64,000 bases of DNA from Syntrophales bacterium (GTDB taxonomy: Bacteria; Desulfobacterota; Syntrophia; Syntrophales; UBA2185). Position 1 is the stretch's first letter, and each line of letters starts with the position of its first letter. The stretch covers positions 9,628 to 73,627 of the forward strand of contig JBEKOL010000010.1 in the NCBI GenBank assembly GCA_049521775.1. Reading direction: 5' to 3'. Position numbers and translations under genes: made by a program. Shown one piece after another: positions 23,809 to 57,007 of the stretch. Under the pieces are notes generated by a model. That model was not told where the DNA came from and did no database searches. It saw only the letters and a program-made list of their open reading frames with translations.

Positions 23809-25218
23809 TCATATGAATTTGATTTTTTTCATTGCAAAGGCCGTCATTTTCAACAGCAGCCATCCATGCCGGAACCGGTCGATCTGTGTGGATCCGTAGG
23901 TCCGCTCCCGGTACCTTATCGGAATTTCGACTATCTGGAGGTTCAGTTTCGCGGCTCCAAAGAGCAGATCAAAATCACCGAACGGATCAAAATCACCGAA
24001 ATAGCTTCGCCCTGCGACGATTTTCTCGTAATCCCTGCGCCGGAGAACTTTGGTTCCACAAAGGGTATCTCTGATTCGTTGATCGAGGAGGTAGGTGAAC
24101 ATGGTACTGAAAAATTTATTTCCCAGAAGATTCAGCGTTCTCATGGCCTCTTTTTCCATTTGATACACAAGGCGACTCCCGATGACAAGCTCTCCCTTGC
24201 CCGAGATAACCGCTTCAAAAAACTTCGTGAGAGATTCGGGAGGAATGGTCAGATCGGCATCGAGAATCATGAGAACATCACCTTTTGCTTCCCGAAATCC
24301 CTTGCGTACGGCATCGGCCTTACCTTTCCCGTCCTGGACCATTACCTTGATGTCCTTGTCGGGATATGCTTTCTGAACCCTGAGGCACTCAGCCAGTGTC
24401 TGGTCCTGGGAATGACCCTCAACGAATATAAGTTCCGTGTGTCTCCCCATATCGGGCATGCGTTTTACAACGTTCTCAATATTTCCCTTTTCATTGCGGC
24501 AGGGAACTACAACAGAACACGTTGTGGCGTCCGCATCTCCTCTTTTCTCGCAAGTCCTGGCAATGACAATGTCATTCAAAGCCAGCTTACGGAAGAACGG
24601 CATCTTCACGATTATCCTGTTTAGCAGGGTTGAGAAGAGAGGGATATATACAGGCATGAGAATCCGATAATCTGCCTTGACAGTTTCGAAGTCACTGAGC
24701 TTGAGGATATTTCGGATGTCTTGCGGCGGCAGCCAGTGCATAATGGGCCGTTTCATCCGCAGGCCAAACCACTCGGCAAATTTCAAAATTGGCTGCCACA
24801 GGTAATTAAAATAGATGACGATTATCCGCGTATCCGGTTTGCAGATCTTCTTCAAGCCGTTAAGAGACGCCTGAATATCATCCACGTAACCGATAACGTT
24901 CACGAGAAGGATATAATCGAACTTCTCGTCCGTTTGCAAAGCCTCCAAATCATCTACACGGAATTCAACACCGGGAAATTTCTCTCTTGCCACTTCAACC
25001 ATCTTCGGGCTGAAATCGATTCCGACTTTGCGTGAAGACTCTAAGGATGCAATCAGATTACCGATACCGCAGCCGATCTGCAGGATGGATGATTGGGCAG
25101 GGACAAGATTCTTAATGTACTTCGCTATGGCCCTGTGATAGTAATCCCCTTTCTTCAGCCATTTCTCTCTTTTTCTGGCCAGGGAATCAAAATATCTTAT
25201 CTTATCGCCTTTATTAAT
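23809..25218 (-). CDS. Class I SAM methyltransferase-GT2 fusion
   Basis: The frame stays open 79 codons upstream of the track ATG (25002) and encodes SILQIGCGIGNL; C-terminal GT2 with VVVPCRNE, ILDAD, DTLCGTK. Proposed start ATT 25218 is uncertain. Confidence 0.85.
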   Translation of the reverse strand: MNKGDKIRYFDSLARKREKWLKKGDYYHRAIAKYIKNLVPAQSSILQIGCGIGNLIASLESSRKVGIDFSPKMVEVAREKFPGVEFRVDDLEALQTDEKFDYILLVNVIGYVDDIQASLNGLKKICKPDTRIIVIYFNYLWQPILKFAEWFGLRMKRPIMHWLPPQDIRNILKLSDFETVKADYRILMPVYIPLFSTLLNRIIVKMPFFRKLALNDIVIARTCEKRGDADATTCSVVVPCRNEKGNIENVVKRMPDMGRHTELIFVEGHSQDQTLAECLRVQKAYPDKDIKVMVQDGKGKADAVRKGFREAKGDVLMILDADLTIPPESLTKFFEAVISGKGELVIGSRLVYQMEKEAMRTLNLLGNKFFSTMFTYLLDQRIRDTLCGTKVLRRRDYEKIVAGRSYFGDFDPFGDFDLLFGAAKLNLQIVEIPIRYRERTYGSTQIDRFRHGWLLLKMTAFAMKKIKFI

Positions 25219-41814: not shown

Positions 41815-44145
41815 TTAGATTGCTTTGCGTATTCTTCTTAAGAATATAGCCAAGCGGCGAAACGGCGCCGTCAGACGCCAGGAGCTTGATGTGAGAATAG
41901 CTTGGAGATGCAATTGATAAGTCTCTTCCTGTTTAATTAAGCGTTCCTCCATATTTTGAATAACACCAAGACTGGCTTCCTGATCTGCTTTTGACGCTTT
42001 TAAGCGACAGGACACATCGTCCAATTCTATTTTATACTTCTGCAATTGCTTCACCACATCGGACACCTGGTTAAAAACGGCTATAACTGGTTTATCAAGC
42101 GTAGCAGCCATATACATAAGATCTGTATTATGACTTAAATAGAAAGAGGGGCTCTGAATTAGGGAACTTGCCTGTAACAAGTCATCATCTGTAAATTGCA
42201 CCAAATGATCACATATTCCCATTTTTATCTTTCTGATACCAATCAATGCTTCAACCTGTTGGAATAAGTCACATGCTTTTTCATTTCCGTAAATTTCAAT
42301 AATAATGTCCTTCAACTCTTCCATGACCTTCAGTGATTCTTCTGAAGCATTATTATCAATTAGTTTCTTTATTGCTTGAATAAGCGTCTGGTAAAGATCG
42401 TCGTGTTCGCCATTAAGATAGAAGCTTGATGTCTTGATGCTCTTGGGTAATCTCGTTGGAAAATGTTTAGCAAGATATAGTAACCTATTTCGCGAACAGA
42501 AATAGTTTGCAAGTTCGGAAGATGCAACCCCATGATACATATGGTATACAACACTCATGGGAGAATAAAATATTTTCCATCCTGTTTTCTTGCATCTGGT
42601 GCTGAAATCTGTGTCTTCAAAAAACATCATGAATTCTTCATCAATACTTCCAACACTTTCAAGACATGACCTCCTCAACAGAACAGAACCACCAGAAAAA
42701 GAGTTTATTTCTTTTACTTCTTCATATTGTCCATAATCTTCTTCACAAAATCCTATATCTCCATAATTAAAATCCGCCCGTTCTTCTACGCCAACACTAT
42801 TAATCTTGCCTCCTTCAAAAAAAATCTTGCTCTGAACGGCACCAACCTTTTCATCCTGAAGCATCACATCCAAAAGACCCCGAAGCCAATTTTTTTCAAC
42901 TCGTGTATCATTATTGAGAAAAGCAACATAATCCCCAGAAGCATTCCTAACGCCCAGGTTGAGCGCCCTGGCAAAATTGTTTAAATCATTTTCAATAACT
43001 TTAATCGTCGGATATTTACATCTAATGTAATTAACTGAATCGTCCTGCGAAAGATTGTCAACCATGATTATCTCTAACGAAATATTATCTCTATCCATAT
43101 TCAACAGAGAATCGAAACATGATTCCAAATATTTCTTGCCGTTGTAATTAACTACAATAACTGTGACTTTGACCCTAACTGCCCCGTTACCATTCATTTC
43201 TTCGTTCGATATTAAGTTCTTCTTGTATAGTTTCACATCACTTGTTTGTATCTTATCAGTCTGATCTTTTGCCATATAACTTAGATCATTCTGATTTCTT
43301 ATCTCTTCATTATAAAACATTCTGTGAGCTTCATTAAATTCTATTCTAATATCTTCAATATCCATTTTTATTTTATCATCTAATCCATCAGTACCGGATA
43401 GATCGGACAAAAGATTATAGTATATTGAAATAAAACTAGGACAGGTGATCACTACATTATCACCAATACAATTATGATGTTTGAGACCCGGATCCAAAAA
43501 AGCCTCTATATCTCTTCTGATATCCTGCCATTTTCTAGGGTAGTTAATATCAAATCTATCGGCAATACGAGTAAACGTCCCCTCAGGATCCCTTAACATA
43601 TCGTCAAAAGAAAGAAAATATCTTCGAAATGGTCTACTGTAATATTCTGCTGTCGTCATGTACTTCATCCATAAAAGAAGACTTTTCTCAATCGTAAAGT
43701 TATTTCTTTTGTTGAGGGAGTTTCCTACTTCCAGGGGATTTCGTATCGGTAAAATACATACCGGATCAATATCGAGATCTTCAAATACGCTTTTCCATAA
43801 TGGGAACAATATAGAAAGGCGAGGGTCCTTAATGCAAAAAATTGAATCGTCTTTGAATTCCCTTTCAACAATCTCAATTATATTCTGCCGATAAGAGTCT
43901 AATCTCGGCATTTTCCACCAATCATCGTGCATAAAGAACAAATCATCCCATGATGAATTTAATGTTTTCAGTATCCCTTCATTGACGTTATATATATCCA
44001 AATTCTCGAAGAAACCTTTTTCATTATCTTCTTCAGCCGGAGCCATCAACCGAGACCCCATATTAATGCCAAGTTGATTTATTACGCCGGCAACAGCAGA
44101 AGTACCGCTTCTGTGACAACCCAGTATTGTTATACATTTTCTCAT
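41815..44145 (-). CDS. Sulfotransferase-like - GT2 - coiled-coil protein with WbdD-like C-terminal amphipathic helix
   Basis: LGCHRSGTS (5'-PSB-like), IKDPR, IRNPLEVGNSL (3'-PB-like); GT2 VIVVNYNG, FLNND, EDTD; ends SSSWRLTAPFRRL. Confidence 0.82.
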   Translation of the reverse strand: MRKCITILGCHRSGTSAVAGVINQLGINMGSRLMAPAEEDNEKGFFENLDIYNVNEGILKTLNSSWDDLFFMHDDWWKMPRLDSYRQNIIEIVEREFKDDSIFCIKDPRLSILFPLWKSVFEDLDIDPVCILPIRNPLEVGNSLNKRNNFTIEKSLLLWMKYMTTAEYYSRPFRRYFLSFDDMLRDPEGTFTRIADRFDINYPRKWQDIRRDIEAFLDPGLKHHNCIGDNVVITCPSFISIYYNLLSDLSGTDGLDDKIKMDIEDIRIEFNEAHRMFYNEEIRNQNDLSYMAKDQTDKIQTSDVKLYKKNLISNEEMNGNGAVRVKVTVIVVNYNGKKYLESCFDSLLNMDRDNISLEIIMVDNLSQDDSVNYIRCKYPTIKVIENDLNNFARALNLGVRNASGDYVAFLNNDTRVEKNWLRGLLDVMLQDEKVGAVQSKIFFEGGKINSVGVEERADFNYGDIGFCEEDYGQYEEVKEINSFSGGSVLLRRSCLESVGSIDEEFMMFFEDTDFSTRCKKTGWKIFYSPMSVVYHMYHGVASSELANYFCSRNRLLYLAKHFPTRLPKSIKTSSFYLNGEHDDLYQTLIQAIKKLIDNNASEESLKVMEELKDIIIEIYGNEKACDLFQQVEALIGIRKIKMGICDHLVQFTDDDLLQASSLIQSPSFYLSHNTDLMYMAATLDKPVIAVFNQVSDVVKQLQKYKIELDDVSCRLKASKADQEASLGVIQNMEERLIKQEETYQLHLQAILTSSSWRLTAPFRRLAIFLRRIRKAI

Positions 44146-44200
44146 TTTTATCTCTGTTTCTACAAATAATCGGCAAATAGATATTATTTGCTATAAAAAC

Positions 44201-44229
44201 AACTCCCCGGGCTAAAGCCTTGGGTTTCT
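44201..44229 (-). mobile_element. Isolated IS200/IS605-type end hairpin (remnant)
   Basis: Minus strand AGAAACCCAAGGCTTTAGCCCGGGGAGTT: imperfect stem with a TTTA loop resembling IS605 subterminal hairpins; no transposase nearby. Confidence 0.5.
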
Positions 44230-44254
44230 AGCCTCTGGCATACCTGCCACAAGT

Positions 44255-45082
44255 CTACGCCCTTGCCAGATTATGCAGGAATGGCTTGCGCCTCGCTCCG
44301 GGGGGTAATTTCACCAAAAGGGGCACATCTAAAACAGCATCATGGCTGATACCGTGTTCCCACAGACCGTCTTCGCCCCAAGCATCGCCGTGATCGGCGC
44401 AGATTATGATCAGGCCATCACTGAAACGCTGGATCATGCTATCGATGTGCGCATCGATAAATTCAAGGCAAGCAATCTGTCTCCGTCGGCACTCTTGGGC
44501 GTCATTATTCACGCTAAACGGGACGCAAGGGTTGTATGACGCATCCCAGGAGGCGCCGTCATGATAATACGGTACATGGGTTTCACCGATATTCAAAAAA
44601 ACAAAATGAGGCGGAGGACATTGGCTCAAGCGCTCATGGATCCACTGTAACTGCTTTAAAAGCGAACAAGAATTACCAGGGTAATAAAAATCGTTGAAAC
44701 TTTGGGTCAGAATTTTACCTGTTTCTGAAGAAGGGTCAAACCAGCCAACGGCACCGCTGCCAAGCGTCGCGTAGCCCAATTTCCGGAGACCATCGATAAT
44801 ATTCGACCCCTCCAGCTCTAAATAAGGAGGATGGTAACCGGCAAAACCGCCTCCTTTCATGCGAAATATCTTGCCATATTTCGGATTGACGTAAGGCTCC
44901 GCAAGGGATGCGACGCCTGGAGTGAATCCCATGAAAAAAGAAGCATGCGCCCCATAGGTAAAGTGGGATGAGGATTTTGCGCGGAAAAGCTCACCGACAC
45001 GCTTCAGATTCGGCGCATTTGCAGACACGAATGTGTCATAACGGCAGGAATCCAACGTAACAAACAGGATATTTGCGGACAT
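44255..45082 (-). CDS. Alkaline-phosphatase/sulfatase-superfamily metalloenzyme
   Basis: ILFVTLDSCRYD, HFTYGAH, ETHVPY, CADHGDAWGEDG..HG..VPL; ATG 45082 preferred over 45136. Confidence 0.8.
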   Translation of the reverse strand: MSANILFVTLDSCRYDTFVSANAPNLKRVGELFRAKSSSHFTYGAHASFFMGFTPGVASLAEPYVNPKYGKIFRMKGGGFAGYHPPYLELEGSNIIDGLRKLGYATLGSGAVGWFDPSSETGKILTQSFNDFYYPGNSCSLLKQLQWIHERLSQCPPPHFVFLNIGETHVPYYHDGASWDASYNPCVPFSVNNDAQECRRRQIACLEFIDAHIDSMIQRFSDGLIIICADHGDAWGEDGLWEHGISHDAVLDVPLLVKLPPGARRKPFLHNLARA

Positions 45083-45132
45083 TCTCTTACCTTTTCTCTT
45101 TATCTGTTTGCATCGCGACGACAGGGTGCTGT

Positions 45133-46395
45133 TCAATTTTCGATAAAGGCCATATCGATATCGAGCACACCCCAGGAGGTTGAATTTTCCTTCTTGAAAA
45201 TTTCAAACGAAAGGGCGCCCACCTGCTTGTCGATCAGCGTGAAGAGATGATCGGACATCCGCTCCTCCAAGCGGAGATTAATAAAATATTCGCCTGGGCC
45301 CAGCGGCGCCTGAAACCGGCATTGGATACCATGAGTGGATAAATCCCCGCCATTCTCGTTTTTCGGCAAACAGCAGTATTTACCGGCGAGGACAAGCATT
45401 CGTTGATCCAGGATAATCAGGGAAAGGCATGGATTCTGGATGGAACCGTCGTATTCGACCTCCGCCGTCACGGTAATCATATCGCCGGACTCAAAAGCAC
45501 CTCGCGTGGTTTGGTTGTTCTCAAAGACCGCCTTGACGACACGCCCCTGGTCGGTTCCAAAGGCAAACTGTCCATCCTCCGCCACCTGCGCCTTGACGGC
45601 GACGGTCCTGTTGATGGAACTTGCCATCTGTTCCTGTCTTGCGTTCATCAGATAGGTCTCCGTAACCTCTAGCGATGGGCCGAAGGCAGCGGTCCGTCCC
45701 TGTTCCAAAAGCAGGGTGAAATCGCAGAAACTGCGGACTAGACCAATGTCATGGGACACGAAAAGAAGCGTCGTTCCGCTTTCAATGAGTTGATGCAGGC
45801 GTTCGAGGCATTTAAATTGAAATGCCATGTCACCCACGGCCAATGCCTCATCTACGATCAGAATTTCAGGCTGCACGCAGACTGATACGGCAAAGGCGAG
45901 TCGCACAAGCATACCGCTTGAATAGGTCTTGACTGGCTGCTCGATGAAGTCGCCGATGTTGGCAAAAGCTGCGATTTCCGGGAAGCGGGCGTTGATTTCC
46001 TTCTGCGATAATCCCAAGACGGAGGCATTCATGAACACATTCTCCCGGCCCGTAAATTCCGTGTTAAACCCGCTCCCCAGTTCAAGGAGCGCTGCAACCC
46101 GTCCGTTAAGCTTCACGCTGCCGCAGGTAGGAGACAGTGTTCCGGCAATCATCTGCAGGAGCGTCGATTTACCCGATCCGTTTCTACCGATGATACCGAC
46201 GCTTTCGCCCCGTCTCACGTTGAAAGTGACGTCCCTGAGCGCCCAAAACTCACGGAAATAATGATGCGGAGGTTGTTTTGCAAGGCGCTGAAGGCGAGGC
46301 AGGACGAATTGTTTGAGCCGATCCCGCGGTGCATTGTAGATCTGATAGCACTTGCCCAGGTTTTCCACGCGGATGGCTATATCATCAGAGGACAT
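45133..46395 (-). CDS. wzt: Polysaccharide ABC exporter ATPase with C-terminal carbohydrate-binding module
   Basis: FWALRDV, GRNGSGKST, YSSGM..RLAF, DEALAVGD, long Wzt_C-like tail; ATG 46395 overlaps the wzm end. Confidence 0.93.
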   Translation of the reverse strand: MSSDDIAIRVENLGKCYQIYNAPRDRLKQFVLPRLQRLAKQPPHHYFREFWALRDVTFNVRRGESVGIIGRNGSGKSTLLQMIAGTLSPTCGSVKLNGRVAALLELGSGFNTEFTGRENVFMNASVLGLSQKEINARFPEIAAFANIGDFIEQPVKTYSSGMLVRLAFAVSVCVQPEILIVDEALAVGDMAFQFKCLERLHQLIESGTTLLFVSHDIGLVRSFCDFTLLLEQGRTAAFGPSLEVTETYLMNARQEQMASSINRTVAVKAQVAEDGQFAFGTDQGRVVKAVFENNQTTRGAFESGDMITVTAEVEYDGSIQNPCLSLIILDQRMLVLAGKYCCLPKNENGGDLSTHGIQCRFQAPLGPGEYFINLRLEERMSDHLFTLIDKQVGALSFEIFKKENSTSWGVLDIDMAFIEN

Positions 46396-47215
46396 CGGCA
46401 AAGCCTTTTCTCGTTTTCTGGAACCACCAGAAGCCCGCCCAGGCAATGGATAGGCTGATAAGGCTGTAGATACCAAGCCCCTCCCAATCCGGCATACGCC
46501 CGCTAAGGAGAACGACACGTGCCTGCTCAATGATAAAAGTGAGCGGATTGGCCATGATCAAGGGTTGGTATTCTTTTGGCAGAGCAGAGACAGGATAGAA
46601 AACCGGAGCGAGAAACATCATTACCGTCGTGATGATGCCTGTGATCTGCCCTATATCCCTGGCGAAAACACCAAGGGAGGCCAGAAACCAAGCAAAGCCG
46701 AGGGTGGCGATGGTCAGTGGAAGCACCACGGCCGGCAAAAACAATACCGTCCAGTGCAGGTATCCGTTCATCGTGAAAAAAGCGGCAAGCAGGACCATAA
46801 CGCTCACGATGGCCTGGAAAAGGGCCGAGCACATAGCCACCATGGGGAGTGTTTCCAGGGGGAAAACGACCTTTTTGACGTAATTAACATTGGAGAGGAT
46901 AAGTCCGGGCGCCCGGTTGACACATTCCGCAAAGAGCCCGTGGATGATCATCCCTACAAAGAGCGTAATGGCGAAACTTGCCTTGCTCTCTTCACTGCCG
47001 ATACCCCATTTCATTTTAAAAACAATTGAAAAAACAAATGTATAAACGCAAAGCATAAACAGCGGATGAAAAAAAGACCAAGCCAAGCCCATAAAGGAAC
47101 CACGGTAGCGACCGACGACTTCGCGATAGGTCATCTGCCGGATGAGCTGTCGGTTGCGCCAGAAGCTGTTGACCATAGCCAGCGGTGATGTGCGAAGCGC
47201 GCCGTGGGCATTCAT
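46385..47215 (-). CDS. wzm: Polysaccharide ABC exporter permease
   Basis: RYRGSFMGLAW, NYVKKVVFP, PVFYP, NPL, GFADVL. Confidence 0.94.
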   Translation of the reverse strand: MNAHGALRTSPLAMVNSFWRNRQLIRQMTYREVVGRYRGSFMGLAWSFFHPLFMLCVYTFVFSIVFKMKWGIGSEESKASFAITLFVGMIIHGLFAECVNRAPGLILSNVNYVKKVVFPLETLPMVAMCSALFQAIVSVMVLLAAFFTMNGYLHWTVLFLPAVVLPLTIATLGFAWFLASLGVFARDIGQITGIITTVMMFLAPVFYPVSALPKEYQPLIMANPLTFIIEQARVVLLSGRMPDWEGLGIYSLISLSIAWAGFWWFQKTRKGFADVL

Positions 47216-47277
47216 ATTTCTGATATCCTTAAAAAAAGAATTTTCCCAAACGATGGGCGATAGGACAGACAGACATT

Positions 47278-49182
47278 TTACCGCTGTGTCAGGATGTCCC
47301 GCTTCAGTCTGTCAATAATGAGGTCGACACTGTTCTCCACGCTTTGCAGATCTGTTTCCAGTGTGATTTCCGGATTACGCGGCGCCTCATAGGGTGATGA
47401 GACGCCCGTAAAGTCCTTGATCTCGCCGGTAATGGCCTTTTGATACAGCCCGTTAGGATCACGCATTCGACAGATGTCCAGATCACATTTGACATAGACT
47501 TCAAAAAAGCTTCCCGCAGGAAATAGTGATCTTACAAACACCCTGTCTTTTTCAAACGGCGATATAAATGTACAGATGACAATATGGCCGGCTTCAAAAA
47601 AGAGTCTTGCCACTTCTCCCACTCTTCGGATATTCTCCGACCTGTCCCTGTCGGAAAAACCCAGATCTCCGCAGAGGCCATGTCTGATATTATCTCCATC
47701 CAGGAGCATGGTCTGGCAGCCGGTTTCAAATAATTTCTTTTCGAGGCCACGTGCTATTGTTGATTTTCCCGATCCGGAGTATCCGGTCAGCCACAGGACA
47801 GAACTCCTATGGCCAAATCTCATCTCTCTCATTCCGCGGGGGATGTTCCAGCCGCTCCAGGTGGTATGGGGAGATTTCTTTTGCTTTACCGTTTCACCTT
47901 CCTTTTGCCCGATCAGATCATCTATTCGCTTCACGGCGCCTCTTATCATACCTGCCGCAACGGTTTTGTTTGTTAAAGGGTCAATTAAGATAAAACTCCC
48001 GGTCCCATGATTCACCCTATAGGGATCGAAAAAGATCGGCAATGCCGTTCTGATTTCCACTCTGCCGATTTCGTTGAGCGCCAGGGTTTCAACACCCCGT
48101 TCCCTGTGCAGGGTATTCACATCGATCTTGTACAATATTTCTGAAATAAAGGCCCTCACGCTCCGGGTTGTATGTTTAAGGATGTATGGCACGCTCATCG
48201 ACAGATGCTGTTCGTCCATCCAGCAAATCGTGGCTTCAATATAACCGCTCACCTGGGGCAGATTGTTTTTTCTGACAAGCATATCCCCTCGACTGATATC
48301 GATTTCATCATTCAGGGTGAGAACGACAGACTGAGAAGCGAACGCTTCGTCCAGCTCTTCATCATAGGTCGTGATGAATTTAACCGTTGTCTGTCTTCCC
48401 GAAGGTAAGACGATGACTTCTTCACCAGGACTGATGGTACCAGATGCTATCCGTCCTGAAAAACCCCTGAAATCAAGATGCGGGCGGATAACATACTGGA
48501 CTGGAAATCGAAAATCGACCAGATTCCGGTCGGCAGTCACATGGACGCTCTCAAGATGGTGCAGAAGGGTCGCTCCGTCATACCACGGCATGCGAGAACT
48601 CTTCTCGACAAGATTATCACCGATGAGTGCGGAAACCGGGATAAAGACCACGTTGTGGATATCAAGCTTTTCGGAGAACGCCGTATATTGTTCAACGATG
48701 TCGCGATAGACTCCTTCAGAGTAATCAACGAGATCCATTTTATTGACGGCAACAATCAAATGGGGGATCTGTAAAAGGGAAACAATAAAGCCGTGGCGCT
48801 TGGACTGGGTGAGTATGCCGTTTCTTGCATCGATCAGGATGACGGCGAGATCTGCCGTCGAGGCGCCTGTAATCATGTTACGTGTATATTGGATATGACC
48901 GGGTGTATCGGCAATAATGAATTTTCTCGACGGCGTTTCAAAATAGCGGTAGGCGACATCAATGGTAATGTTCTGTTCCCTTTCGGCAGACAGTCCATCG
49001 AGAAGCAGCGCCAGATCGACTTCATTCATGCCTTTTCTTTTTGAGGTTGTTTCAATTGCGGCATATTGATCTTCATAAATTGATTTCGTTTCAAAGAGGA
49101 GACGGCCGATCAGAGTGGATTTCCCGTCATCGACACTCCCGGTCGTCGTGAAGCGAAGCAGTGTCTTTTCCCTGAGCGTCAT
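47278..49182 (-). CDS. cysNC: Bifunctional sulfate adenylyltransferase subunit 1 / APS kinase (CysNC, NodQ-type)
   Basis: GSVDDGKST, ITIDVAYRYF, DTPGH, NKMD; C-terminal WLTGYSGSGKST, LDGDNIRHGL; TGATG overlap with cysD. Confidence 0.96.
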   Translation of the reverse strand: MTLREKTLLRFTTTGSVDDGKSTLIGRLLFETKSIYEDQYAAIETTSKRKGMNEVDLALLLDGLSAEREQNITIDVAYRYFETPSRKFIIADTPGHIQYTRNMITGASTADLAVILIDARNGILTQSKRHGFIVSLLQIPHLIVAVNKMDLVDYSEGVYRDIVEQYTAFSEKLDIHNVVFIPVSALIGDNLVEKSSRMPWYDGATLLHHLESVHVTADRNLVDFRFPVQYVIRPHLDFRGFSGRIASGTISPGEEVIVLPSGRQTTVKFITTYDEELDEAFASQSVVLTLNDEIDISRGDMLVRKNNLPQVSGYIEATICWMDEQHLSMSVPYILKHTTRSVRAFISEILYKIDVNTLHRERGVETLALNEIGRVEIRTALPIFFDPYRVNHGTGSFILIDPLTNKTVAAGMIRGAVKRIDDLIGQKEGETVKQKKSPHTTWSGWNIPRGMREMRFGHRSSVLWLTGYSGSGKSTIARGLEKKLFETGCQTMLLDGDNIRHGLCGDLGFSDRDRSENIRRVGEVARLFFEAGHIVICTFISPFEKDRVFVRSLFPAGSFFEVYVKCDLDICRMRDPNGLYQKAITGEIKDFTGVSSPYEAPRNPEITLETDLQSVENSVDLIIDRLKRDILTQR

Positions 49183-50108
49183 CAAAAATATCCCTCTTTC
49201 TTCTTCTGTTCCATAGAGGAATCGCTGGTGAGATCGATGACCCGATTTTCACGTTCGGATTTTCTGGCCGCTTCCACTTCCCTGATGATATCGTCAATGT
49301 TTGACGCCGTTGATGGAATTGCGCCCGTACAGGGAATACATCCAAGGCTTCGGAAACGGCACATGACCGTTTCTTTTTTCTCATACCCTGAACCGTTTCT
49401 CATGTCGTTATCAGCCTCTGGAGTCGCTGAAACGGGAATCAGGATGTTGCCGCATCTGGTTATTTCCCGGCTCAAAGCAAAATAAATCGGAACGATGGGA
49501 ATATTTTCCAACTTTATGTAATGCCAGATATCCTGTTCCGTCCAGTTGCTGAGCGGAAAAACCCGCATGGAGGTAGTTTCACCGATTCTCGTATTGTACA
49601 GATCCCACAGTTCAGGTCGCTGATTCTTGGGATCCCACTGGCCGAACTCGTCACGAAGAGAAAATATCCGTTCCTTTGCCCTCGATTTTTCTTCTTCCCT
49701 TCTGGCGCCACCGAAGGCCGCGTCAAACCCGTGCTTTTTCAGTGCATCGAGCAAAGCTCCGGTCTTGAGATAACTGCAACATTTATCAACGCCGATTTTC
49801 AGAGGATGGCACCCCTTCGCGATCCACTCCTCATTTCGTTCAACGATTAGCTGAGCTCCTATTGCCTTGCAGAAGCTGTTACGGAATTCGTACATTTCAG
49901 GAAATTTAAACCCTGTATCGACATGCATCAACGGAAATGGAAATTTTCCGGGATAAAATGCTTTCTGTGCCAGCCGGACCATCACGCTTGAATCTTTCCC
50001 CGCAGAGTAGAGCATGACCGGATTTTTGAATTCAGCCACAACTTCTCTCATGATATGAATGGATTCCGATTCGAGTTGCTTAAGGTATGACAGGCTGTAA
50101 GATTTCAT
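49182..50108 (-). CDS. cysD: Sulfate adenylyltransferase subunit 2
   Basis: YSAGKDS PP-loop, [39 protein letters not shown]. Confidence 0.96.
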
Positions 50109-50121
50109 AAATTTTCCCAGA

Positions 50122-50970
50122 TTAACTTATTTCACCACTGATATAGGCCTGCGTTCTTTCGTCCTTTGGAGAGCCAAAAAATGAACTGGCAGGCCCATGC
50201 TCAATCAATTCACCCATATAAAGAAACATAACATAGTCTGCCAACCTCCGTGCCTGGCGAAGGATATGGGTGACCACAACAATCGTATACTTTGCTTTCA
50301 GCAATCTGAATTGCTTCTCAATCAGCGTAGCTGATATAGGATCTAATGCGGAAGTCGGTTCATCGGCAAGAATGGCCTCCGGCTCGACAGCTAGCGCCCT
50401 TGCCAGCGCCAGCCGCTGCTGCTGCCCGACGGAAAGCCGTGCTGCCGGGGCATGTAATCTATCTTTCACTTCATCCCAGAGACCGGCAAGACGAAGATAA
50501 TACTCAACAAGGTGATCAATCTCAGAGTTCTTCTGTGACCGGTCGGATGGAAAAGTAAAATCGGTAAATGATCCGATAATGGCATTATTTTTCTCTATGG
50601 CCTCTATCTGACGGAGAATCTGTTGGCCGTTCATCCTGTGGATTCTGGGTCCGAAGGCGATATTGTCATAGATGGACATCGGCAGCGGATAAGGACGCTG
50701 AGAAAGAAAGCCCACTTTTTTTCTCAGGGCAAGAATATCAGCTTGTGGATCGTAGATGTTTATCCCATCAATCAGCACATCCCCGCTTATATGGACATCC
50801 TCATAGAGATCGAGCAGGCGGTTCAGGCTTTTAAGCAATGTCGTCTTGCCACACCCCGACGGACCTAAAATGGCAATGATCTGACGATCGGGGATATCAA
50901 CCGTTATATTCCGGAGCACTTCATGATTTCCATAGGAAACCGTTAGATTATTCAGGCTAATGTGTGAAAT
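50122..50970 (-). CDS. pstB: Phosphate ABC transporter ATPase
   Basis: [36 protein letters not shown]; frame extends upstream of the track GTG (50919) to ATT 50970. Confidence 0.9.
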
Positions 50971-50977
50971 CGAATAT

Positions 50978-51826
50978 CTACCTTACAATATATTTTGAAA
51001 AGCGCCATCCCAGGATCCGGGAAATAATATTTACCAATAGCACAATGAACAGTAAGATAAGCGCCGATGTATAAGCCCTGTCTTGTACTTCAGGAATAGG
51101 TGTAGCAGATTGGAAAAATACAGCAAGGGGCAGAGAAGCTACCGGATCTAATAGTGAACCAGGCATATAATCGGTATACCCAGTCGTAAAGAGAATGGAT
51201 GCTGCGTCACCAATACCGCGTCCAAAGGCAAGTAAAACCGCTGTGATCATTCCCGGCAGTGCCTGCCTCAAGACAACAGAAACAGTTGTTTCAATCTTTG
51301 TTGTTCCGAGGGAGTATGAGACTTCCTTAAGCTCTAAAGGAACTGTCCTTATCACTTCTTCCATTGACCTTATCATAATGGGAAGCATCAGAAGAGTTAA
51401 AACAATAATCCCCCCGAGCAAAGACGCTCTAAGTCCGAAATATACCATGACAACAAATCCGAAAGCGCCGTAGACGATAGATGGCATACCCCAGAGTATA
51501 TCCAGGACAAGTCTGGTACAATTGGCAACGAGATGCCCGGCATACTCGCGCTGAATTGCAAAGGCAACGGGTAGACTCAGGATGATGGAAAGGAATGAGG
51601 CGCCGAATGCAAGATATAAAGACCCTACGATGGCATTGGCAATACCTCCTTCTTTCCCCAGGTAGTATCCGCCCTTTGGTGTATCTATAATCATAGACAG
51701 ACTGAGAGCCGATATTCCCTTCACGACAATTACGAATATGATACCGGCAAGGGCCGTCAAGATCAGCCCCAGTGAGATAATCATCAATCCCTTAAACAGG
51801 TTTTCTTCCAGTCTTCTCGCTTTCAT
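50978..51826 (-). CDS. pstA: Phosphate ABC transporter permease
   Basis: GGIANAIVGS, GMPSIVYG, EAA-like loop VPLELKEVSYSLG. Confidence 0.9.
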   Translation of the reverse strand: MKARRLEENLFKGLMIISLGLILTALAGIIFVIVVKGISALSLSMIIDTPKGGYYLGKEGGIANAIVGSLYLAFGASFLSIILSLPVAFAIQREYAGHLVANCTRLVLDILWGMPSIVYGAFGFVVMVYFGLRASLLGGIIVLTLLMLPIMIRSMEEVIRTVPLELKEVSYSLGTTKIETTVSVVLRQALPGMITAVLLAFGRGIGDAASILFTTGYTDYMPGSLLDPVASLPLAVFFQSATPIPEVQDRAYTSALILLFIVLLVNIISRILGWRFSKYIVR

Positions 51827-51828
51827 TT

Positions 51829-52716
51829 TTATGACGCCTGCCTTCCCATCCGCAATAGTGTGAGATGGGCCATCAGACTAAAACCCCCTACAACGAGGAG
51901 CAGAATGAGAGCGGCAAGCAACATTGCAGAATCATAGAGAGGTATTGACATCATCTCGCCGTAATTGTTAGCAATTAGGGCCGGCAGCGGATATGCCGGG
52001 TCAAAAACCGATGCCGGAACTTGAGCAACATTTCCCACAACCATTAAAACAGCAATTGTTTCACCAAAGGCACGGGCAAACCCCATAATGACGGCAGCAA
52101 AAATGCCACGTCGCGCACTCTTTAAAATAACATGCCTGACTGCCTCCCACTTCGTCGTTCCCAATGCAAGGGCATTCTCGCGTGCCTCAATAGGAATCAT
52201 CCTGAGTACTTCCAAAGAAAGAGAAATAATGAAAGGGGACACCATAACCGCAAGAATGACACCGCCCGCAAGGAGGCTGTATCCCGTTGTCGTGTTACCT
52301 AGGGCATTGCCAACGAGCCGCACAAATGGCACAACCACAATGACGCCACAGAGCCCATAAATGACGGAAGGAATGCCCGCCAGTATGTCAATAGCGAGAC
52401 GAGCAAATTCTCTGAATCTCATATTCGCATATTCCGAAAGATAAATTGCACTTAACAGACATACGGGAATTGATAGAATCATCGCTATGGCGGTCACTTC
52501 CAGGGTACTTATAATGAATGGATAAAAACCAAAGTGGCCTTTTAAGGGGTGCCAATCAGAGGAAAACAGAAGTTCAACGATGGATATCTTGTCGAGAATC
52601 GGTTTTGATTTAAAAAAAAGTGTTATTATTATAATGAATGCAATTGCGTTTACAAGAACCAGACTTAAACGCAATATGCCACTGGCAAAAAGATCTTTTA
52701 TTTGCCTCCACGTCAT
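51829..52716 (-). CDS. pstC: Phosphate ABC transporter permease
   Basis: AIYLSEY, LAGIPSVIYG, ALALGTTKWE, ARAFGETIAV. Confidence 0.92.
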   Translation of the reverse strand: MTWRQIKDLFASGILRLSLVLVNAIAFIIIITLFFKSKPILDKISIVELLFSSDWHPLKGHFGFYPFIISTLEVTAIAMILSIPVCLLSAIYLSEYANMRFREFARLAIDILAGIPSVIYGLCGVIVVVPFVRLVGNALGNTTTGYSLLAGGVILAVMVSPFIISLSLEVLRMIPIEARENALALGTTKWEAVRHVILKSARRGIFAAVIMGFARAFGETIAVLMVVGNVAQVPASVFDPAYPLPALIANNYGEMMSIPLYDSAMLLAALILLLVVGGFSLMAHLTLLRMGRQAS

Positions 52717-52743
52717 GACTTATATATCTACCTATTACCCACC

Positions 52744-55700
52744 TTAATAGCCCACAGAACCTGTCATATTTGTCAGTGTTCCAGTGCTATTTCGCAATGT
52801 CCCCATCAGAACGATATTGGAAGAGGGATAGGTAATATGCAAACGGAAATTACCCGTTGCAAGGTTTGCTCCCACCACATTGCCCAAATCGGAGATAGAT
52901 AACCTTGCCGTGGATTTGCCCGCCAGCGAACTTACAAGGATAGAATTTGCCGTCCCCATGACGCTTCCATCCAAAGTATATACCGTACCACGGACCTGAA
53001 ACGGACTGCTTGAGAAGTTTGTAATACGAATGAACGCTGCATCAGCACTTGTAGAGCCGGGCATAAAATAAAGATCCGAAGTTGCGCTTTCGCTCATGTT
53101 TACCAGATCACCTGTAGCGTTCATAATCCAACCCATAACCACCAATCCGGAAGTGGGAGATGTAATCTCTAAACGAACGCTATTGCTCAGAGGAGAGGAA
53201 CCAATCCTTCCTTCCAGATCAGCAGCCGACAAAATCACAGTCTGTTGCGATGCCAAAGAACTAACAAGAATAGAATCGGCAGTACCTGCCACCGATCCAT
53301 CAAGCTTATAAACAGTCCCTCTCACTTGCACAGCGGCGCTCGTTGTATTGGTAATTCGAACGTATCCTACATCGGAAGCTGCGGAACCAGGAATATGGAA
53401 AACCATATTATTTGTGATGGCAGAACTCATGTTCTCCAGCGTCCCCGCTGCTGTCCGAATCACACCCATAATAGCCACACCGGAGGTTGATGAGGTCGTA
53501 TCCAGGCGGGCACGGTTTGTCCATGGAGAACAATTCACCAGCCTCTCCAGGTCGGCTGCAGCTAATACTTTTGTCTCTTTAGGAGCCAGGGAACTCACGA
53601 GGACAGAGTTGGCGGTCCCCAAAATATATCCATCCTTATGGTATAATGTACCATTGACCTGCGTAGAAGACGTGTCCGACTTATTGGTAATCCTTATGGA
53701 CGCCTGATCGACATTCCCGGACCCTGGTATGTTATACAGACTCGCAGTTGTCGTATTACTCATGTTCGTCATGGTACCGCTGTAACTCCGAAAGGTCCCC
53801 ATAAGAACAACACCGGAACTGGGAGAGGTGATTTCGAGACGGGCACCGCCATTCCAGGATGAAACACCCACTATGCCCGCCAATTGAGACGGCGTTAGAT
53901 GTCCTGTCTCATTAGGAGCCAAGGAACTGAATAAAGTCACGCTGGCACTCCCCAGAACTGCACCACTCTGGTTATACAAAATTCCCTTCACTCCCGTTGA
54001 ACTGCTTGATGTATTCGTTATTCTGACTGCACCGGAATCCGTAACGGATGGAGAGGGAATATTGTTGAGGAAGGGGGGCGATGGTACTGAATCAGATTGA
54101 ATGATTAAATCGTTTCCCGCCACCGCAACGAAGGTATTGTTGCCAAAAGTTACACCATTGAATGAATTCGCTGTCCCGGAGCTGCGGCTTGTCCACGTGA
54201 TACCGTCCGGTGTCGTAATGACGACGCCGGAGATCCCCGCCGCAACAAAGGTGTTGTTCCCAAAAGCTACGCCATTGAGCGAATTCGATGTCCCGGAGTT
54301 GTGGCTTGTCCACGTGATCCCATCGGAAGACGTTATGACCGTGCCGTAGCCTCCTACCGCAACGAAGGTATTCTTGCCAAAAGTTACACCATTGAACGAA
54401 TTCGATGTCCCGGAGCTTCTGTTTGTCCATGTAGCTCCATCAGGAGAGGTTATTACTGTGCCGGCGCCTCCCACGGCAATATACATGTTATTGCCATAGG
54501 TCACACTATTAAGTACATTCGTTGTGCCGGAGCTTCTTGCTGTCCACGCAACTCCGTCAGGAGAGGTTATTACTGTGCCGACGCTTCCCACGGCAATATA
54601 CATGTTATTGCCATAGATCACGCTATTGAGTGCATTTGTACTGGAGTTGCTATTTCTCCACACGATCCCGTCGGAAGAGGTCACTACCGTACCGGCACCC
54701 CCTGCAGCAACAAAGGTATTACTGCCATAAGTAACAGCACTTAGAATACTCGTTATCCCCGAACTTCTGGCTGTCCATACAATTCCGTCGGGAGACGTTC
54801 GGACCGCACCAGAACCTCCTACAGCAACAAAAGCATTATTGCCATAAGTAACAGCACTTAGATTGCTCATCGCTCCTACACCTCTACTCACCCAGGCAAT
54901 CCCGTCCGAAGAGGTAAGGATTGTGCCAGAATTTCCTACAGCAACAAAAGTATTTCCGCCGTAGGTAACTCCATTAAGTATATTAGATATTCCCGAGGTT
55001 CTGGTTGTCCATGTGAATCCGTCAGGGGATGTATACACTGCGCCGGAGCTTCCCACGGCAACAAAAGTATTTCCGCCGTAGGTCACGCCGCCGAATGCAT
55101 TCGTCGGGCCTGAAGCACTGTTATTCCATGTAATCCCGTCAGTAGATACGATGACTGTGCTGGAGCTTCCCACAGCAACAAAAGTATTTCCACCGTAGGC
55201 CACCCCGCTGAGTGCATTCGTCGTCCCCGAAGTCCTGGCCGTCCATGCAATACCGTTAGGAGAAGTAAGTACCTTACCAGAAACTCCAACGGCAACAAAG
55301 GTGCTATTGGCATAGGACACGCCATTGAGTGCATTCGCCGTCCCAGAAACTTGGGACGTCCATGTGATACCATCGGGAGAGGTAAGCGCTGTCCCGGAGC
55401 CTCCCACGGCAACAAAGGTGCTATTGCCATAGGTCACGCCACTGAGTGTATTCGTCGTCCCCGAACTTCTATTTGCCCATGTGATACCATCTGAAGAAGT
55501 CATTACCGCACCGGATACTCCCACGGCAACAAAGGTGCTATTGGCATAGGTCACGCCGTTAAGCGTATTCGTTGTTCCCGAGGTTATATTTGTCCATGTG
55601 ATCCCGTCAGGCGAAGTAAGTATTGTGCCGAAGCTTCCCACAGCAACAAAAGTATTGTTGCCATATGTGACTTGATTTAGATCATTTCCTGTTGGCATTG

Positions 55701-55842
55701 GATTTCTCACGTGCCAGTTATCGAGCGGATCTGCATGTAAGGCCGGTGGAACAATTAACATCACCACGAAATAGATTAATAGAAACAGATTCATGAATAA
55801 ATGCCCACCCCTTTTGGCATTTGAAGAGACCTTTTTCCCCAT
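52744..55842 (-). CDS. Secreted Ser/Thr/Gly-rich repeat protein: 14 Asp-box (BNR) repeats plus 4 beta-rich C-terminal repeats
   Basis: AGGAGG SD, signal peptide ending ALHA, 39-aa repeats VTYGxxTFVAVGxxGxxxTSxDGITW, then four ~110-aa repeats xPG..D...RITN. Confidence 0.85.
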   Translation of the reverse strand: MGKKVSSNAKRGGHLFMNLFLLIYFVVMLIVPPALHADPLDNWHVRNPMPTGNDLNQVTYGNNTFVAVGSFGTILTSPDGITWTNITSGTTNTLNGVTYANSTFVAVGVSGAVMTSSDGITWANRSSGTTNTLSGVTYGNSTFVAVGGSGTALTSPDGITWTSQVSGTANALNGVSYANSTFVAVGVSGKVLTSPNGIAWTARTSGTTNALSGVAYGGNTFVAVGSSSTVIVSTDGITWNNSASGPTNAFGGVTYGGNTFVAVGSSGAVYTSPDGFTWTTRTSGISNILNGVTYGGNTFVAVGNSGTILTSSDGIAWVSRGVGAMSNLSAVTYGNNAFVAVGGSGAVRTSPDGIVWTARSSGITSILSAVTYGSNTFVAAGGAGTVVTSSDGIVWRNSNSSTNALNSVIYGNNMYIAVGSVGTVITSPDGVAWTARSSGTTNVLNSVTYGNNMYIAVGGAGTVITSPDGATWTNRSSGTSNSFNGVTFGKNTFVAVGGYGTVITSSDGITWTSHNSGTSNSLNGVAFGNNTFVAAGISGVVITTPDGITWTSRSSGTANSFNGVTFGNNTFVAVAGNDLIIQSDSVPSPPFLNNIPSPSVTDSGAVRITNTSSSSTGVKGILYNQSGAVLGSASVTLFSSLAPNETGHLTPSQLAGIVGVSSWNGGARLEITSPSSGVVLMGTFRSYSGTMTNMSNTTTASLYNIPGSGNVDQASIRITNKSDTSSTQVNGTLYHKDGYILGTANSVLVSSLAPKETKVLAAADLERLVNCSPWTNRARLDTTSSTSGVAIMGVIRTAAGTLENMSSAITNNMVFHIPGSAASDVGYVRITNTTSAAVQVRGTVYKLDGSVAGTADSILVSSLASQQTVILSAADLEGRIGSSPLSNSVRLEITSPTSGLVVMGWIMNATGDLVNMSESATSDLYFMPGSTSADAAFIRITNFSSSPFQVRGTVYTLDGSVMGTANSILVSSLAGKSTARLSISDLGNVVGANLATGNFRLHITYPSSNIVLMGTLRNSTGTLTNMTGSVGY
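54090..55700 (-). repeat. ~117-bp coding repeat array, 14 units
   Basis: Counted from the translation; neighbouring units are similar at DNA level. Confidence 0.85.
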
Positions 55843-56011
55843 CTCAATAGCCCTCCTTTTTTTGCTGACCTTTGACGTTAATAGAAAAATTTAACGAAGA
55901 TTAACCTTAAAAACACGCTGGAAATAATTAGTATTCTCTGACCAATCTCCACTGCGAAACTGAAATGGTTTCACGACTTATAATAAATTATCCCCTGTCA
56001 GGTTTATCTTT

Positions 56012-57007
56012 TTATTTCCCAAGCTTTTCAAGAGCTTCTTTTATCTGGATTTGAGGAAGGTTTATATATCCTACCTCCTCAACATATTTTTGTCCATCGA
56101 CTAATATCCATTTGACAAATTCTCTAACAACCCCTTTAAATTCCACTTTTGTAATAAGATATAAATCTCTTGCGGGTGGTGACGGGTACTTCTTAGCAAC
56201 AACTGCGCTGATGGCTTTCTGCTTTGTACTTAGATCTTCTTCAGGATCGATCTTTCCATTTTCATTCACATCTATCGGCAAAACTCGCAGCCCGCTCACT
56301 GGTAGACCTGTCTTGACATCATAGGCATAGTTGAGATTGTTGTAACCAATGCCGAGGGGGTCTTTCTTAATGGCTTCTGCCACGCCTGGATCGCCATAGA
56401 CACCCACGCCCTTGAGGTCTTCCTGTTTTCCACCAAGGTATCGTGCCCATGTTTCCGCGGCGCCACAAGAATCAGACCTTGTATACACCTGAATCCGGTC
56501 TTTATTAGATGGCGCCCCGATAATCGCCCCCCATGTCAATGTCTTTCCACCTATCCAGAGCTCCACAAAGACTTTTTTCATGACACCTTTTTCCATGAGG
56601 CCTTTCGTCAGCATGGGGTTCTTATCATTGATCGTCAGGAATACGGCATCCTTAACGACGGGCACATAGAAAGCGCCCTGCTTAACCTCTTCAGGTCTTA
56701 CTTCTCTTGACACCATGCCGATATCCACGAGACCGGCAAGGGCATCAGCCGCACCTTTGCCGGCGCCTCCGGCAGAGACATCAATCCTCACCTTCGGATG
56801 AATTTTTCCGAACTCTTCACCCCATTTGATCATCATCGGATACATAGCCCAGGCGCCGGAGACCCTGATTGTCCCTTGCAGTCCAGTGACACCTGACTCA
56901 GACTTCGATCCTGTTACATCTCTGCCCTTCTTTTCACAGCCTATCATGCAAAAGAGGAGCGCGATAGAACAAAGGCAACCAACAACAGCCAATCGAAAAT
57001 GTTTCAT
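56012..57007 (-). CDS. pstS: Phosphate-binding lipoprotein (PstS-like)
   Basis: Lipobox-like MIGC, ISAGGAGKG-type motif VSAGGAGKG, DIGMVSR, YPSPPARDLY; upstream of pstCAB. Confidence 0.85.
   Translation of the reverse strand: MKHFRLAVVGCLCSIALLFCMIGCEKKGRDVTGSKSESGVTGLQGTIRVSGAWAMYPMMIKWGEEFGKIHPKVRIDVSAGGAGKGAADALAGLVDIGMVSREVRPEEVKQGAFYVPVVKDAVFLTINDKNPMLTKGLMEKGVMKKVFVELWIGGKTLTWGAIIGAPSNKDRIQVYTRSDSCGAAETWARYLGGKQEDLKGVGVYGDPGVAEAIKKDPLGIGYNNLNYAYDVKTGLPVSGLRVLPIDVNENGKIDPEEDLSTKQKAISAVVAKKYPSPPARDLYLITKVEFKGVVREFVKWILVDGQKYVEEVGYINLPQIQIKEALEKLGK

Follow-up and report, generated by a model that had tools for sequence, protein, structure and literature searches.

We analyzed a 64,000-nucleotide stretch of DNA from a Syntrophales bacterium (contig JBEKOL010000010.1, positions 9,628 to 73,627; here called the window). 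The window is almost wholly a lipopolysaccharide (LPS) locus, and a block of genes on its minus strand contains cysD and cysNC, for the activation of sulfate, wzm and wzt, for an ATP-binding cassette (ABC) glycan exporter, and a gene for a 776-amino-acid (aa) protein with a predicted N-terminal sulfotransferase domain (Table 1). With a probability of roughly 0.8, this portion of the window makes up the O-polysaccharide part, of the ABC-transporter-dependent kind, of a large LPS locus and specifies a sulfated, ABC-exported O-polysaccharide with a self-contained supply of 3'-phosphoadenosine 5'-phosphosulfate (PAPS). The strongest result is that one species of a lineage without sulfate assimilation holds the activating pair and a sulfotransferase two genes apart. 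An earlier reading, made without database searches (the sequence-only reading), had gone further and proposed that sulfate terminates the glycan chain and serves as its export signal. A sulfate cap is plausible, at odds that we place somewhat below even, and the presence of PAPS genes and sulfotransferases in polysaccharide clusters is already known.

Activated sulfate and the exporter

The cysD and cysNC genes overlap by 4 bp, wzm follows cysNC after 62 bp, and the APS_kinase domain occupies residues 461 to 609 of the CysNC fusion. As the sequence-only reading had reported, cysD, cysNC, wzm, and wzt are contiguous and co-oriented, all on the minus strand, and profile scans of the window proteins agreed with its statement that neither cysH nor a sulfite reductase gene lies within the window.

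The window copy was the only match to cysD in the whole genome, the assembly of which is 99.9% complete, and the window cysNC encoded the only CysN above the cutoff. A genome search with the CysH model matched cysD alone (52.5 bits against a cutoff of 154), CysI and Sat were not found, and nothing scored above the cutoff for AprA; a CysQ-like gene elsewhere in the genome reached 105 bits, below its cutoff. We also sampled 40 relatives (genus, 10; family, 11; order, 19). An intact cysD was present in 0 of the 40, one of which held three fragments, and the sulfotransferase family of the 776-aa protein was likewise found in none. Because cysD and cysNC are sole copies, because CysH, CysI, Sat, and AprA were not found, and because these relatives hold neither an intact cysD nor the sulfotransferase family, the pair very probably makes PAPS for sulfation and not for assimilation, as the sequence-only reading had supposed. 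Judged by gene content, sulfation would be the only use that the lineage has for activated sulfate, and the organism would be unable to grow on sulfate.

The exporter ATPase was said to carry a glycan-binding module, and it does: in addition to the Wzt_C match (Table 1), Wzt residues 52 to 448 aligned end to end with 8dku_A, a full-length chain of 404 aa from an ABC transporter (E, 4.8e-66). The C-terminal module takes up about residues 310 to 465. The frame is open from 45133 to 46530, and the most likely start codon is the ATG at 46395 (420 aa) and not the TTG at 46530. The same binding module was found in 0 of the 40 relatives, which lack the sulfotransferase, and this comparison is thus uninformative on sulfate as its ligand.

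The 776-aa protein and its relatives

Both of the PAPS-binding-like motifs noted from the sequence are present in the 776-aa protein, HRSGTS at residues 11 to 16 and RNPxxVxxS, in the form RNPLEVGNS, at residues 135 to 143. By the usual motif definitions, the HRSGTS loop would be the 5'-phosphosulfate loop and R135...S143 the 3'-phosphate pair. In sets of 10 and 44 sequences, the latter made up of 43 short family members and the 776-aa protein's own domain, H11-R12-S13-G14-T15-S16 and R135...S143 were invariant or at least 90% conserved, and G14, S16, E47, K106, P108, R109, R135, and S143 were among the residues invariant in all 44. Sulfotransfer_3 was matched by 26 of the 44 family members (E, ≤0.01) and Sulfotransfer_1 by 6.

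An AlphaFold2 (AF2) model of the domain, built on the 44-sequence alignment, had a predicted local distance difference test (pLDDT) score of 93. Its top Foldseek matches were mycobacterial Stf1 and Stf9 and tyrosylprotein sulfotransferases (TPST) (E, ~1e-5; probability, 1.00), with the CurM sulfotransferase also among the first. In the VIA comparison, the top 28 entries were all sulfotransferases, aligned over 180 to 220 residues with Z scores of 10.6 to 15.7; the match to TPST1 covered 208 residues (Z, 15.7; root mean square deviation, 4.0). The model thus predicts a fold of the PAPS-dependent sulfotransferase type for the N-terminal domain.

A family 2 glycosyltransferase (GT2) domain follows, the acidic residues of which (D363, D368, D413, E510, D511, and D513) were invariant in 10 of 10 sequences. 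Residues 653 to 692 are a remnant of a GT9 motif that matches the GT9 motif of the neighboring 885-aa protein, P0265, at 45% identity (E, 1e-7), which hints at a shared origin, or a pairing, of the two proteins. The predicted coiled coil, called like the others in this work with our own heptad heuristic, spans about 60 residues; AF2 placed helices at residues 694 to 715 and 719 to 752 (pLDDT, 48 to 69 as a monomer), and the full-length model had low confidence at residues 636 to 697. Its length varies among homologues, with a difference of exactly 7 residues in the close homologue P0002 and of more than 100 residues, as 21-residue repeats, in the more distant P0005 to P0007, which is the behavior expected of a variable ruler. 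The C-terminal end, quoted in the sequence-only reading and indeed present after the coiled coil, reads ...LTSSSWRLTAPFRRLAIFLRRIRKAI. The 16-mer at residues 761 to 776 has the third-highest hydrophobic moment in the protein (0.72), AF2 predicted a helix at residues 760 to 775 with low pLDDT, and 13 of 80 family proteins share the SWRLTAPFRR motif. Searches with Pfam and NCBIfam gave no match to a kinase, methyltransferase, or 3-deoxy-d-manno-octulosonate (Kdo) transferase family anywhere in the 776-aa protein.

The sulfotransferase family is large, with 19,643 cluster representatives at E ≤1e-3 and 4,083 at E ≤1e-30 among the 1.84 billion representatives searched. We scored 80 loci with family members, from many phyla, for PAPS genes within 10 kb. 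By our own heuristic, 57 of the 80 family proteins have 35 or more residues of coiled-coil-like sequence in one stretch, mostly starting directly after the sulfotransferase domain, and some relatives, for example P0076, have a sulfotransferase-coiled coil-GT2 architecture. Upstream sequence of at least 3 kb was available for 66 loci; in 21 of these, a wzt gene ended within 1.5 kb upstream on the same strand, and 16 of the 21 encoded Wzt_C. The wzt and sulfotransferase genes were directly adjacent across several phyla. In a Leptospiraceae locus (L026), the order is the same as here (cysD-cysN-CysQ-like-apsK-wzm-wzt with the binding module-sulfotransferase). A betaproteobacterial locus (L055) has wzm, wzt, a sulfatase-like gene, and the sulfotransferase gene in the same order and holds the only related Wzt binding module in the set. 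Among the loci with PAPS genes, L051 has cysD at its edge, and four further ones carry a stand-alone APS kinase gene.

Alternative explanations and the place of sulfate on the glycan

Several observations weigh against a dedicated sulfation system. The host belongs to an uncultured lineage. The 776-aa protein scored below the gathering score of 27 bits for Sulfotransfer_3 (whole protein, 19.9 bits; domain alone, 23.9 bits); a single-sequence search of the domain against solved structures returned no sulfotransferase (E, ≥1), and a search with the 44-sequence profile placed sulfotransferases at E values of 0.38 to 0.5, with coiled-coil proteins as the best matches (E, 0.056). Since neither kind of search was significant, the fold is shown through the model. 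The genome encodes a DsrAB-type sulfite reductase (contig C1:178592-180761). In the family survey, cysD or APS-kinase genes lay within 10 kb in 8 of the 80 loci; the sequence-only reading had said that homologous loci mostly lacking cysD and cysNC would count against it, and, taken literally, this is what we found in the other 72. Such co-occurrence is a weak guide because most hosts can make adenosine 5'-phosphosulfate (APS) or PAPS elsewhere, and by a rough estimate 8 in 80 exceeds chance for a 20-kb window, yet these loci are a minority. The 776-aa gene has a guanine-plus-cytosine content of 36% (30 to 39% in all parts), against 45 to 53% in its neighbors and 47 to 53% from cysD through the sulfatase-like gene. 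It is probably of separate, recent origin, the present gene order is probably a mosaic, and the 776-aa gene and the PAPS genes may not have arrived together. Finally, a 781-aa protein on contig C18 (L092:7829-10174, plus strand), with tetratricopeptide repeats (TPR), a sulfotransferase-like domain, and a GT2 domain, is a second candidate user of PAPS.

These observations bear on three alternatives to the sulfation of an O-polysaccharide. If cysD and cysNC were ordinary assimilatory genes that happen to adjoin a glycan cluster, it would make sense that they are the only cysD and cysN of the genome and that DsrAB is present. No CysH- or AprA-type reductase that would link APS or PAPS to sulfite was found, however, nor was CysI, and Sat was also not found alongside DsrAB. 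All 10 species sampled from the genus have DsrAB and lack cysD, so that DsrAB is independent of cysD; the product of the APS-kinase fusion, PAPS, finds no reductive use in this genome. The sequence-only reading had asked whether this might be the genome's only assimilatory cysD and cysNC: the genome has no other copy, but this one is not assimilatory, and we consider the assimilatory explanation very improbable. The idea of a P-loop kinase or an inactive fold at the N terminus draws on the shared fold core, on matches to adenylate kinases (Z, 10.2 to 10.6, the best of them aligned over 147 residues) and guanylate kinases (Foldseek E, ~2e-3), and on the subthreshold Pfam score. Against it, the kinases aligned over 147 to 170 residues and ranked below all of the leading sulfotransferases, more than half of the relatives matched Sulfotransfer_3, the HRSGTS loop and R135...S143 are conserved, and PAPS genes lie close by here as in the eight related loci. 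For practical purposes, the comparison of both folds excludes a kinase, to which we give hardly any weight, in agreement with the earlier preference for a sulfotransferase. PAPS might also serve mainly the C18 protein, with the O-antigen link secondary. That protein matched Sulfotransfer_3 (26 bits) and Sulfotransfer_1 (21.4 bits) near threshold and lies in a sugar-modification cluster of amino-sugar and deoxy-sugar genes, comprising a C-methyltransferase, two DegT aminotransferases, an acetyltransferase, and epimerases. The cysD and cysNC genes, however, lie two genes away from the 776-aa protein, within the O-antigen cluster rather than on C18, and both uses are compatible with each other, so that we regard a primary role for C18 as unlikely. 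Independently of this question, the C18 protein may belong to another sulfated-glycan system or to a protein-glycosylation system.

Where the sulfate would sit on the exported glycan is a separate matter. In the mechanism that we propose, CysD and CysNC would convert sulfate to PAPS, the N-terminal sulfotransferase of the 776-aa protein would transfer sulfate to the lipid-linked glycan in the cytoplasm, its GT2 domain would add a sugar, and Wzm and Wzt would export the product, the C-terminal module of Wzt binding the finished glycan. We infer both the acceptor, this glycan, and the position of the sulfate on it. Tentatively, the sulfate, or a sulfated sugar added by the GT2 domain, could be a cap at the nonreducing end and the export tag read by the Wzt module, because a catalytic head on a predicted coiled coil of about 60 residues followed by a basic amphipathic helix recalls the topology of the chain terminator WbdD. 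A self-contained module is conceivable as part of the cap proposal, in which a Pst-derived importer brings in sulfate, CysD and CysNC activate it, the sulfotransferase caps the chain, and Wzm and Wzt export it; we would not put this at even odds. Of the WbdD-like layout described in the sequence-only reading, the N-terminal domain, the helix of about 60 residues, and the basic amphipathic tail were recovered, but the GT2 domain lies on the same side of the coiled coil. With GT2 and sulfotransferase both on its far side, the ruler logic that separates terminator from polymerase does not map simply, which counts against a cap. A two-step terminator, in which GT2 would add the capping sugar and the sulfotransferase would sulfate it, fits this arrangement by analogy with the kinase and methyltransferase of WbdD.

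It is also possible, though we again stop short of an even chance, that sulfate only decorates the repeat units and that the cap read by Wzt comes from other enzymes of the cluster, either from the GT9-like head of P0265, adding a terminal sugar as in WbbB, or from a methyltransferase, adding methyl as in Escherichia coli O8. P0265, the second coiled-coil protein of the block, speaks for such a different cap: in addition to its GT9-like head and GT2 domain, it has a longer coiled-coil-like linker (residues 386 to 475) of three tandem repeats of about 22 residues (...DRDNAVEEIxKRDSWLAELKQ...), and its homologues often carry fused methyltransferase and polysaccharide pyruvyl-transferase domains, chemistries typical of end modification. 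As a whole protein, it is unique to this genome in the comparison with relatives, and it may act as a scaffold and as a terminator, either a rival or a partner one. The two methyltransferase genes after it are candidates for making a methyl cap or methylated sugars, and methyltransferases occur in three of eight annotated related loci (L055, L059, and L082). The Wzt binding module, moreover, is not enriched beside the sulfotransferase family; we rejected this idea, since Wzt_C was present in 17 of 27 complete Wzt proteins adjoining the family (L054 and L070, cut by contig ends, were excluded), against a rough background of 96 of 119 open frames of Wzt type, counted in 150 genomes of the phylum with a length proxy of at least 383 aa. 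A sulfated O-polysaccharide of Cobetia, in a paper that PMC11641403 cites, reportedly carries its sulfate in the repeat unit, and we counted it on the same side. Conversely, there is no known reason for a decorating enzyme to have a coiled coil and a membrane-proximal tail, and the position of the coiled coil directly after the sulfotransferase domain in most of the family, together with the adjacency of wzt and sulfotransferase genes across several phyla, argues for a cap. The Aeromonas salmonicida sulfotransferase-domain gene located after wzt, which may or may not belong to the family, is reported without repeat-unit sulfate (PMC4483657), and this better fits a substoichiometric group than a repeat-unit one.

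A sulfate cap, if real, would be a new chemistry beside methyl, methyl-phosphate, Kdo, and pyruvate. The family of sulfotransferases with coiled coils (19,643 representatives, many encoded directly after wzm-wzt) would then be a widespread group of uncharacterized glycan chain terminators, and sulfate capping could concern thousands of surface glycans in many phyla. The genome is an unusually clean test case, with activated sulfate only for sulfation and 40 relatives without intact cysD or the sulfotransferase family. Even as decoration alone, the locus predicts sulfated LPS in a strictly anaerobic syntroph and offers a compact gene set (activation, transferase, and exporter) for producing sulfated polysaccharides in a heterologous host.

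Locus layout, neighboring genes, and known systems

Upstream on the plus strand, the window contains bamA, skp, lpxD, lpxA, lpxB, msbA, lpxK, a late acyltransferase gene, heptosyltransferase genes, and pagL; the lpx genes, msbA, and the heptosyltransferase genes, together with a gene for a WecA-like initiating transferase, make up the LPS setting. The minus-strand block runs, in the order of transcription, from a Pst-like importer through cysD, cysNC, wzm, wzt, a sulfatase-family gene, the 776-aa gene, the 885-aa gene, two methyltransferase genes, and an 875-aa GT2-GT4 gene to epimerase genes, three GT2 genes, and the genes for the WecA-like initiating transferase and a WbpM-like dehydratase (Table 1). 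Every gene and motif quoted in the sequence-only reading was found in its place, but that reading had overlooked three features: the central GT2 region of the 776-aa protein, a sulfatase-like gene separating that protein's gene from wzt, and, just downstream, another protein with a coiled coil.

Table 1. Features of the minus-strand block, with positions in the window
Feature	Position	Strand	Evidence
Divergent Pst-like ABC importer: pstB-, pstA-, and pstC-like genes, 1032-aa protein, binding protein	50122..57007	-	NCBIfam
cysD, sulfate adenylyltransferase small subunit	49182..50108	-	NCBIfam NF009214 CysD equivalog, 433 bits vs cutoff of 413
cysNC, fusion of CysN GTPase subunit and APS kinase	47278..49185	-	NF004035, 907 bits vs 715
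wzm, ABC-2 permease of glycan exporter	46385..47215	-	PF01061 (ABC2_membrane), E 3.6e-24
wzt, exporter ATPase with C-terminal carbohydrate-binding module	45133..46395	-	ABC_tran and Wzt_C, 47.7 bits vs 30.4
Sulfatase-family gene, small cytoplasmic enzyme of alkaline-phosphatase/sulfatase superfamily	44255..45082	-	PF00884, E 2e-7
Predicted sulfotransferase-GT2-coiled coil protein (P0001), 776 aa	41815..44145	-	Domain matches, AF2 model, guanine-plus-cytosine content
Predicted sulfotransferase domain, residues 1-240	43426..44145	-	AF2, Foldseek, VIA, invariant residues
GT2 domain, residues 325-560	42466..43173	-	PF00535, E 1.3e-24; AF2 pLDDT mostly >90
Predicted coiled coil, residues ~687-752	41890..42087	-	Heptad heuristic (687-750); AF2 helices
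SWRLTAPFRR motif and basic amphipathic helix, possible membrane anchor	41818..41877	-	Hydrophobic moment, AF2
GT9-like-coiled coil-GT2 protein (P0265), 885 aa	39046..41703	-	Glyco_transf_9, residues 149-344; GT2, residues 479-618
Two S-adenosylmethionine methyltransferases, 236 and 308 aa	37277..39004	-	Methyltransf_11, E 2.7e-13 and 8.8e-10
GT2-GT4 dual glycosyltransferase, 875 aa	34592..37219	-	PF00535 and PF00534

The sulfatase-family gene probably starts at the ATG at 45082 (275 aa), although its frame is open to 45136 (293 aa). Its product scored 141.7 bits against 250 for the STM4013-family model and retains a C-terminal DHGD...H metal site. The formylglycine motif [CS]xPxR was absent from the translation of the open reading frame (ORF), and we therefore rejected a true formylglycine sulfatase for this 275- to 293-aa protein; FTYGAH stands at the position of the choline-sulfatase motif in a weak HMMER alignment, in a stretch that was not significant. 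A PAP phosphatase is another conceivable function of this protein. The protein is 56% identical to that encoded in the same position, between wzt and the sulfotransferase gene, in the betaproteobacterial locus L055. Its Atlas neighbors include fusions with STM4012-type radical SAM proteins. The 875-aa GT2-GT4 protein is likely a component of the polymerase.

The Pst-like importer ends 13 bp upstream of cysD. Against the NCBIfam cutoffs, its PstB (297 versus 343), PstS (101 versus 207), and PstA (191.2 versus 193.45) fell below and its PstC (246 versus 196) above, and canonical pst genes, including a PstB of 400 bits, are located on contig C17. The 331-aa binding protein had no close homologue in 20 relatives (best, 29% identical) and differs at the residues that HMMER aligned to the phosphate-binding SGS/SGT stretches of PstS structures. 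An Sbp-type sulfate-binding protein was not found in the genome, and the match to SulP was marginal. The importer is a divergent PstSCAB paralogue and a candidate sulfate importer. Between its binding-protein and permease genes lies the gene for the 1032-aa protein (52744-55842, minus strand), which gave DUF6242 and weak beta-propeller matches and no NCBIfam family.

Elsewhere in the LPS cluster, a TnpB/IS605 OrfB-like gene lies on the opposite strand, as one of a pair with a neighboring ORF (22246-23604, plus strand, and 23809-25002, minus strand). In the 397-aa ORF beside the TnpB-like gene, the methyltransferase part aligns with just the C-terminal half of the Pfam models, and the ORF may be truncated. 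Between lpxA and lpxB (8983-11021, plus strand) are genes for a Gfo/Idh/MocA oxidoreductase and a DegT aminotransferase, an arrangement associated with a lipid A built on 2,3-diamino-2,3-dideoxyglucose.

In the capped ABC-exported glycans described in the part of PMC11231755 that we draw on, the terminating enzyme is carried by a protein with a coiled-coil ruler and the C-terminal module of Wzt binds the cap; the cap chemistries given there are methyl, methyl-phosphate, and Kdo, plus a nonobligatory pyruvate. WbdD of E. coli O9a and O8 and of Klebsiella pneumoniae O3 and O5, as presented in the same text, resembles the 776-aa protein in its N-terminal nonpolymerizing modifying domain, its coiled coil (a predicted one in the 776-aa protein), and its C-terminal amphipathic region, and in having a partner Wzt with a cap-binding module (PMC11231755). 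The 776-aa protein differs in that it lacks sequence homology to WbdD and has neither a kinase nor a methyltransferase domain, in that GT2 and the GT9 remnant lie on the same side of the coiled coil, in that the coiled coil is short (about 60 residues), and in that its putative chemistry would be the transfer of sulfate from PAPS. WbbB (K. pneumoniae O12) and ORF6 (K. pneumoniae O7), going by that source, likewise join a terminator-type domain, one or more glycosyltransferase modules, and a coiled coil in one polypeptide, with beta-Kdo or methyl-phosphate as the terminator chemistry in place of the sulfotransferase found here (PMC11231755); in the 776-aa protein the coiled coil comes after GT2 and not between the sulfotransferase and GT2. 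We found no homology of the 776-aa protein to the WbdD kinase or methyltransferase or to the GT99 domain of WbbB; by analogy it could work like a terminator, yet it is a homologue of neither.

PAPS genes and sulfotransferases in a polysaccharide cluster are treated as a hallmark of sulfated polysaccharide synthesis in the portion of PMC11641403 used here. The capsule cluster of Vibrio sp. KMM 8419 described in that portion is ABC transporter dependent and, like the present locus, includes cysN, cysD, cysC, and sulfotransferases; unlike it, the cluster has a Kps-type exporter, stand-alone sulfotransferases, repeat-unit sulfation, and PAPS genes that are second copies, and neither a coiled-coil sulfotransferase nor a Wzt binding module figures in that account (PMC11641403). 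In A. salmonicida A450, ORF19 is a sulfotransferase-domain gene located directly after wzt (438 aa) and before the gene for a WbbB-like protein, an arrangement like that seen here; it differs in its length of 216 aa and in that no sulfate was seen in the O antigen, and its authors left it unexplained (PMC4483657). We found no paper in which a sulfate cap is shown or named for an ABC-exported glycan, and the 2019 census by Mann and colleagues may already predict one. The abstract of that census (Mann, Kimber, and Whitfield, Glycobiology 2019) is said to predict new capping chemistries, and the census may list sulfotransferases.

Dedicated PAPS synthesis paired with a sulfotransferase is known from NodPQ and NodH of rhizobia and from RaxPQ and RaxST of Xanthomonas. 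The present locus resembles these systems in that a cysD and cysN-cysC set serves a sulfotransferase and not assimilation. Their hosts also assimilate sulfate and hold the dedicated genes as extra copies, whereas here cysD and cysNC are the sole copies in a genome whose 40 sampled relatives have no intact cysD, and the acceptor is presumably an O-polysaccharide in place of a Nod factor or a peptide.

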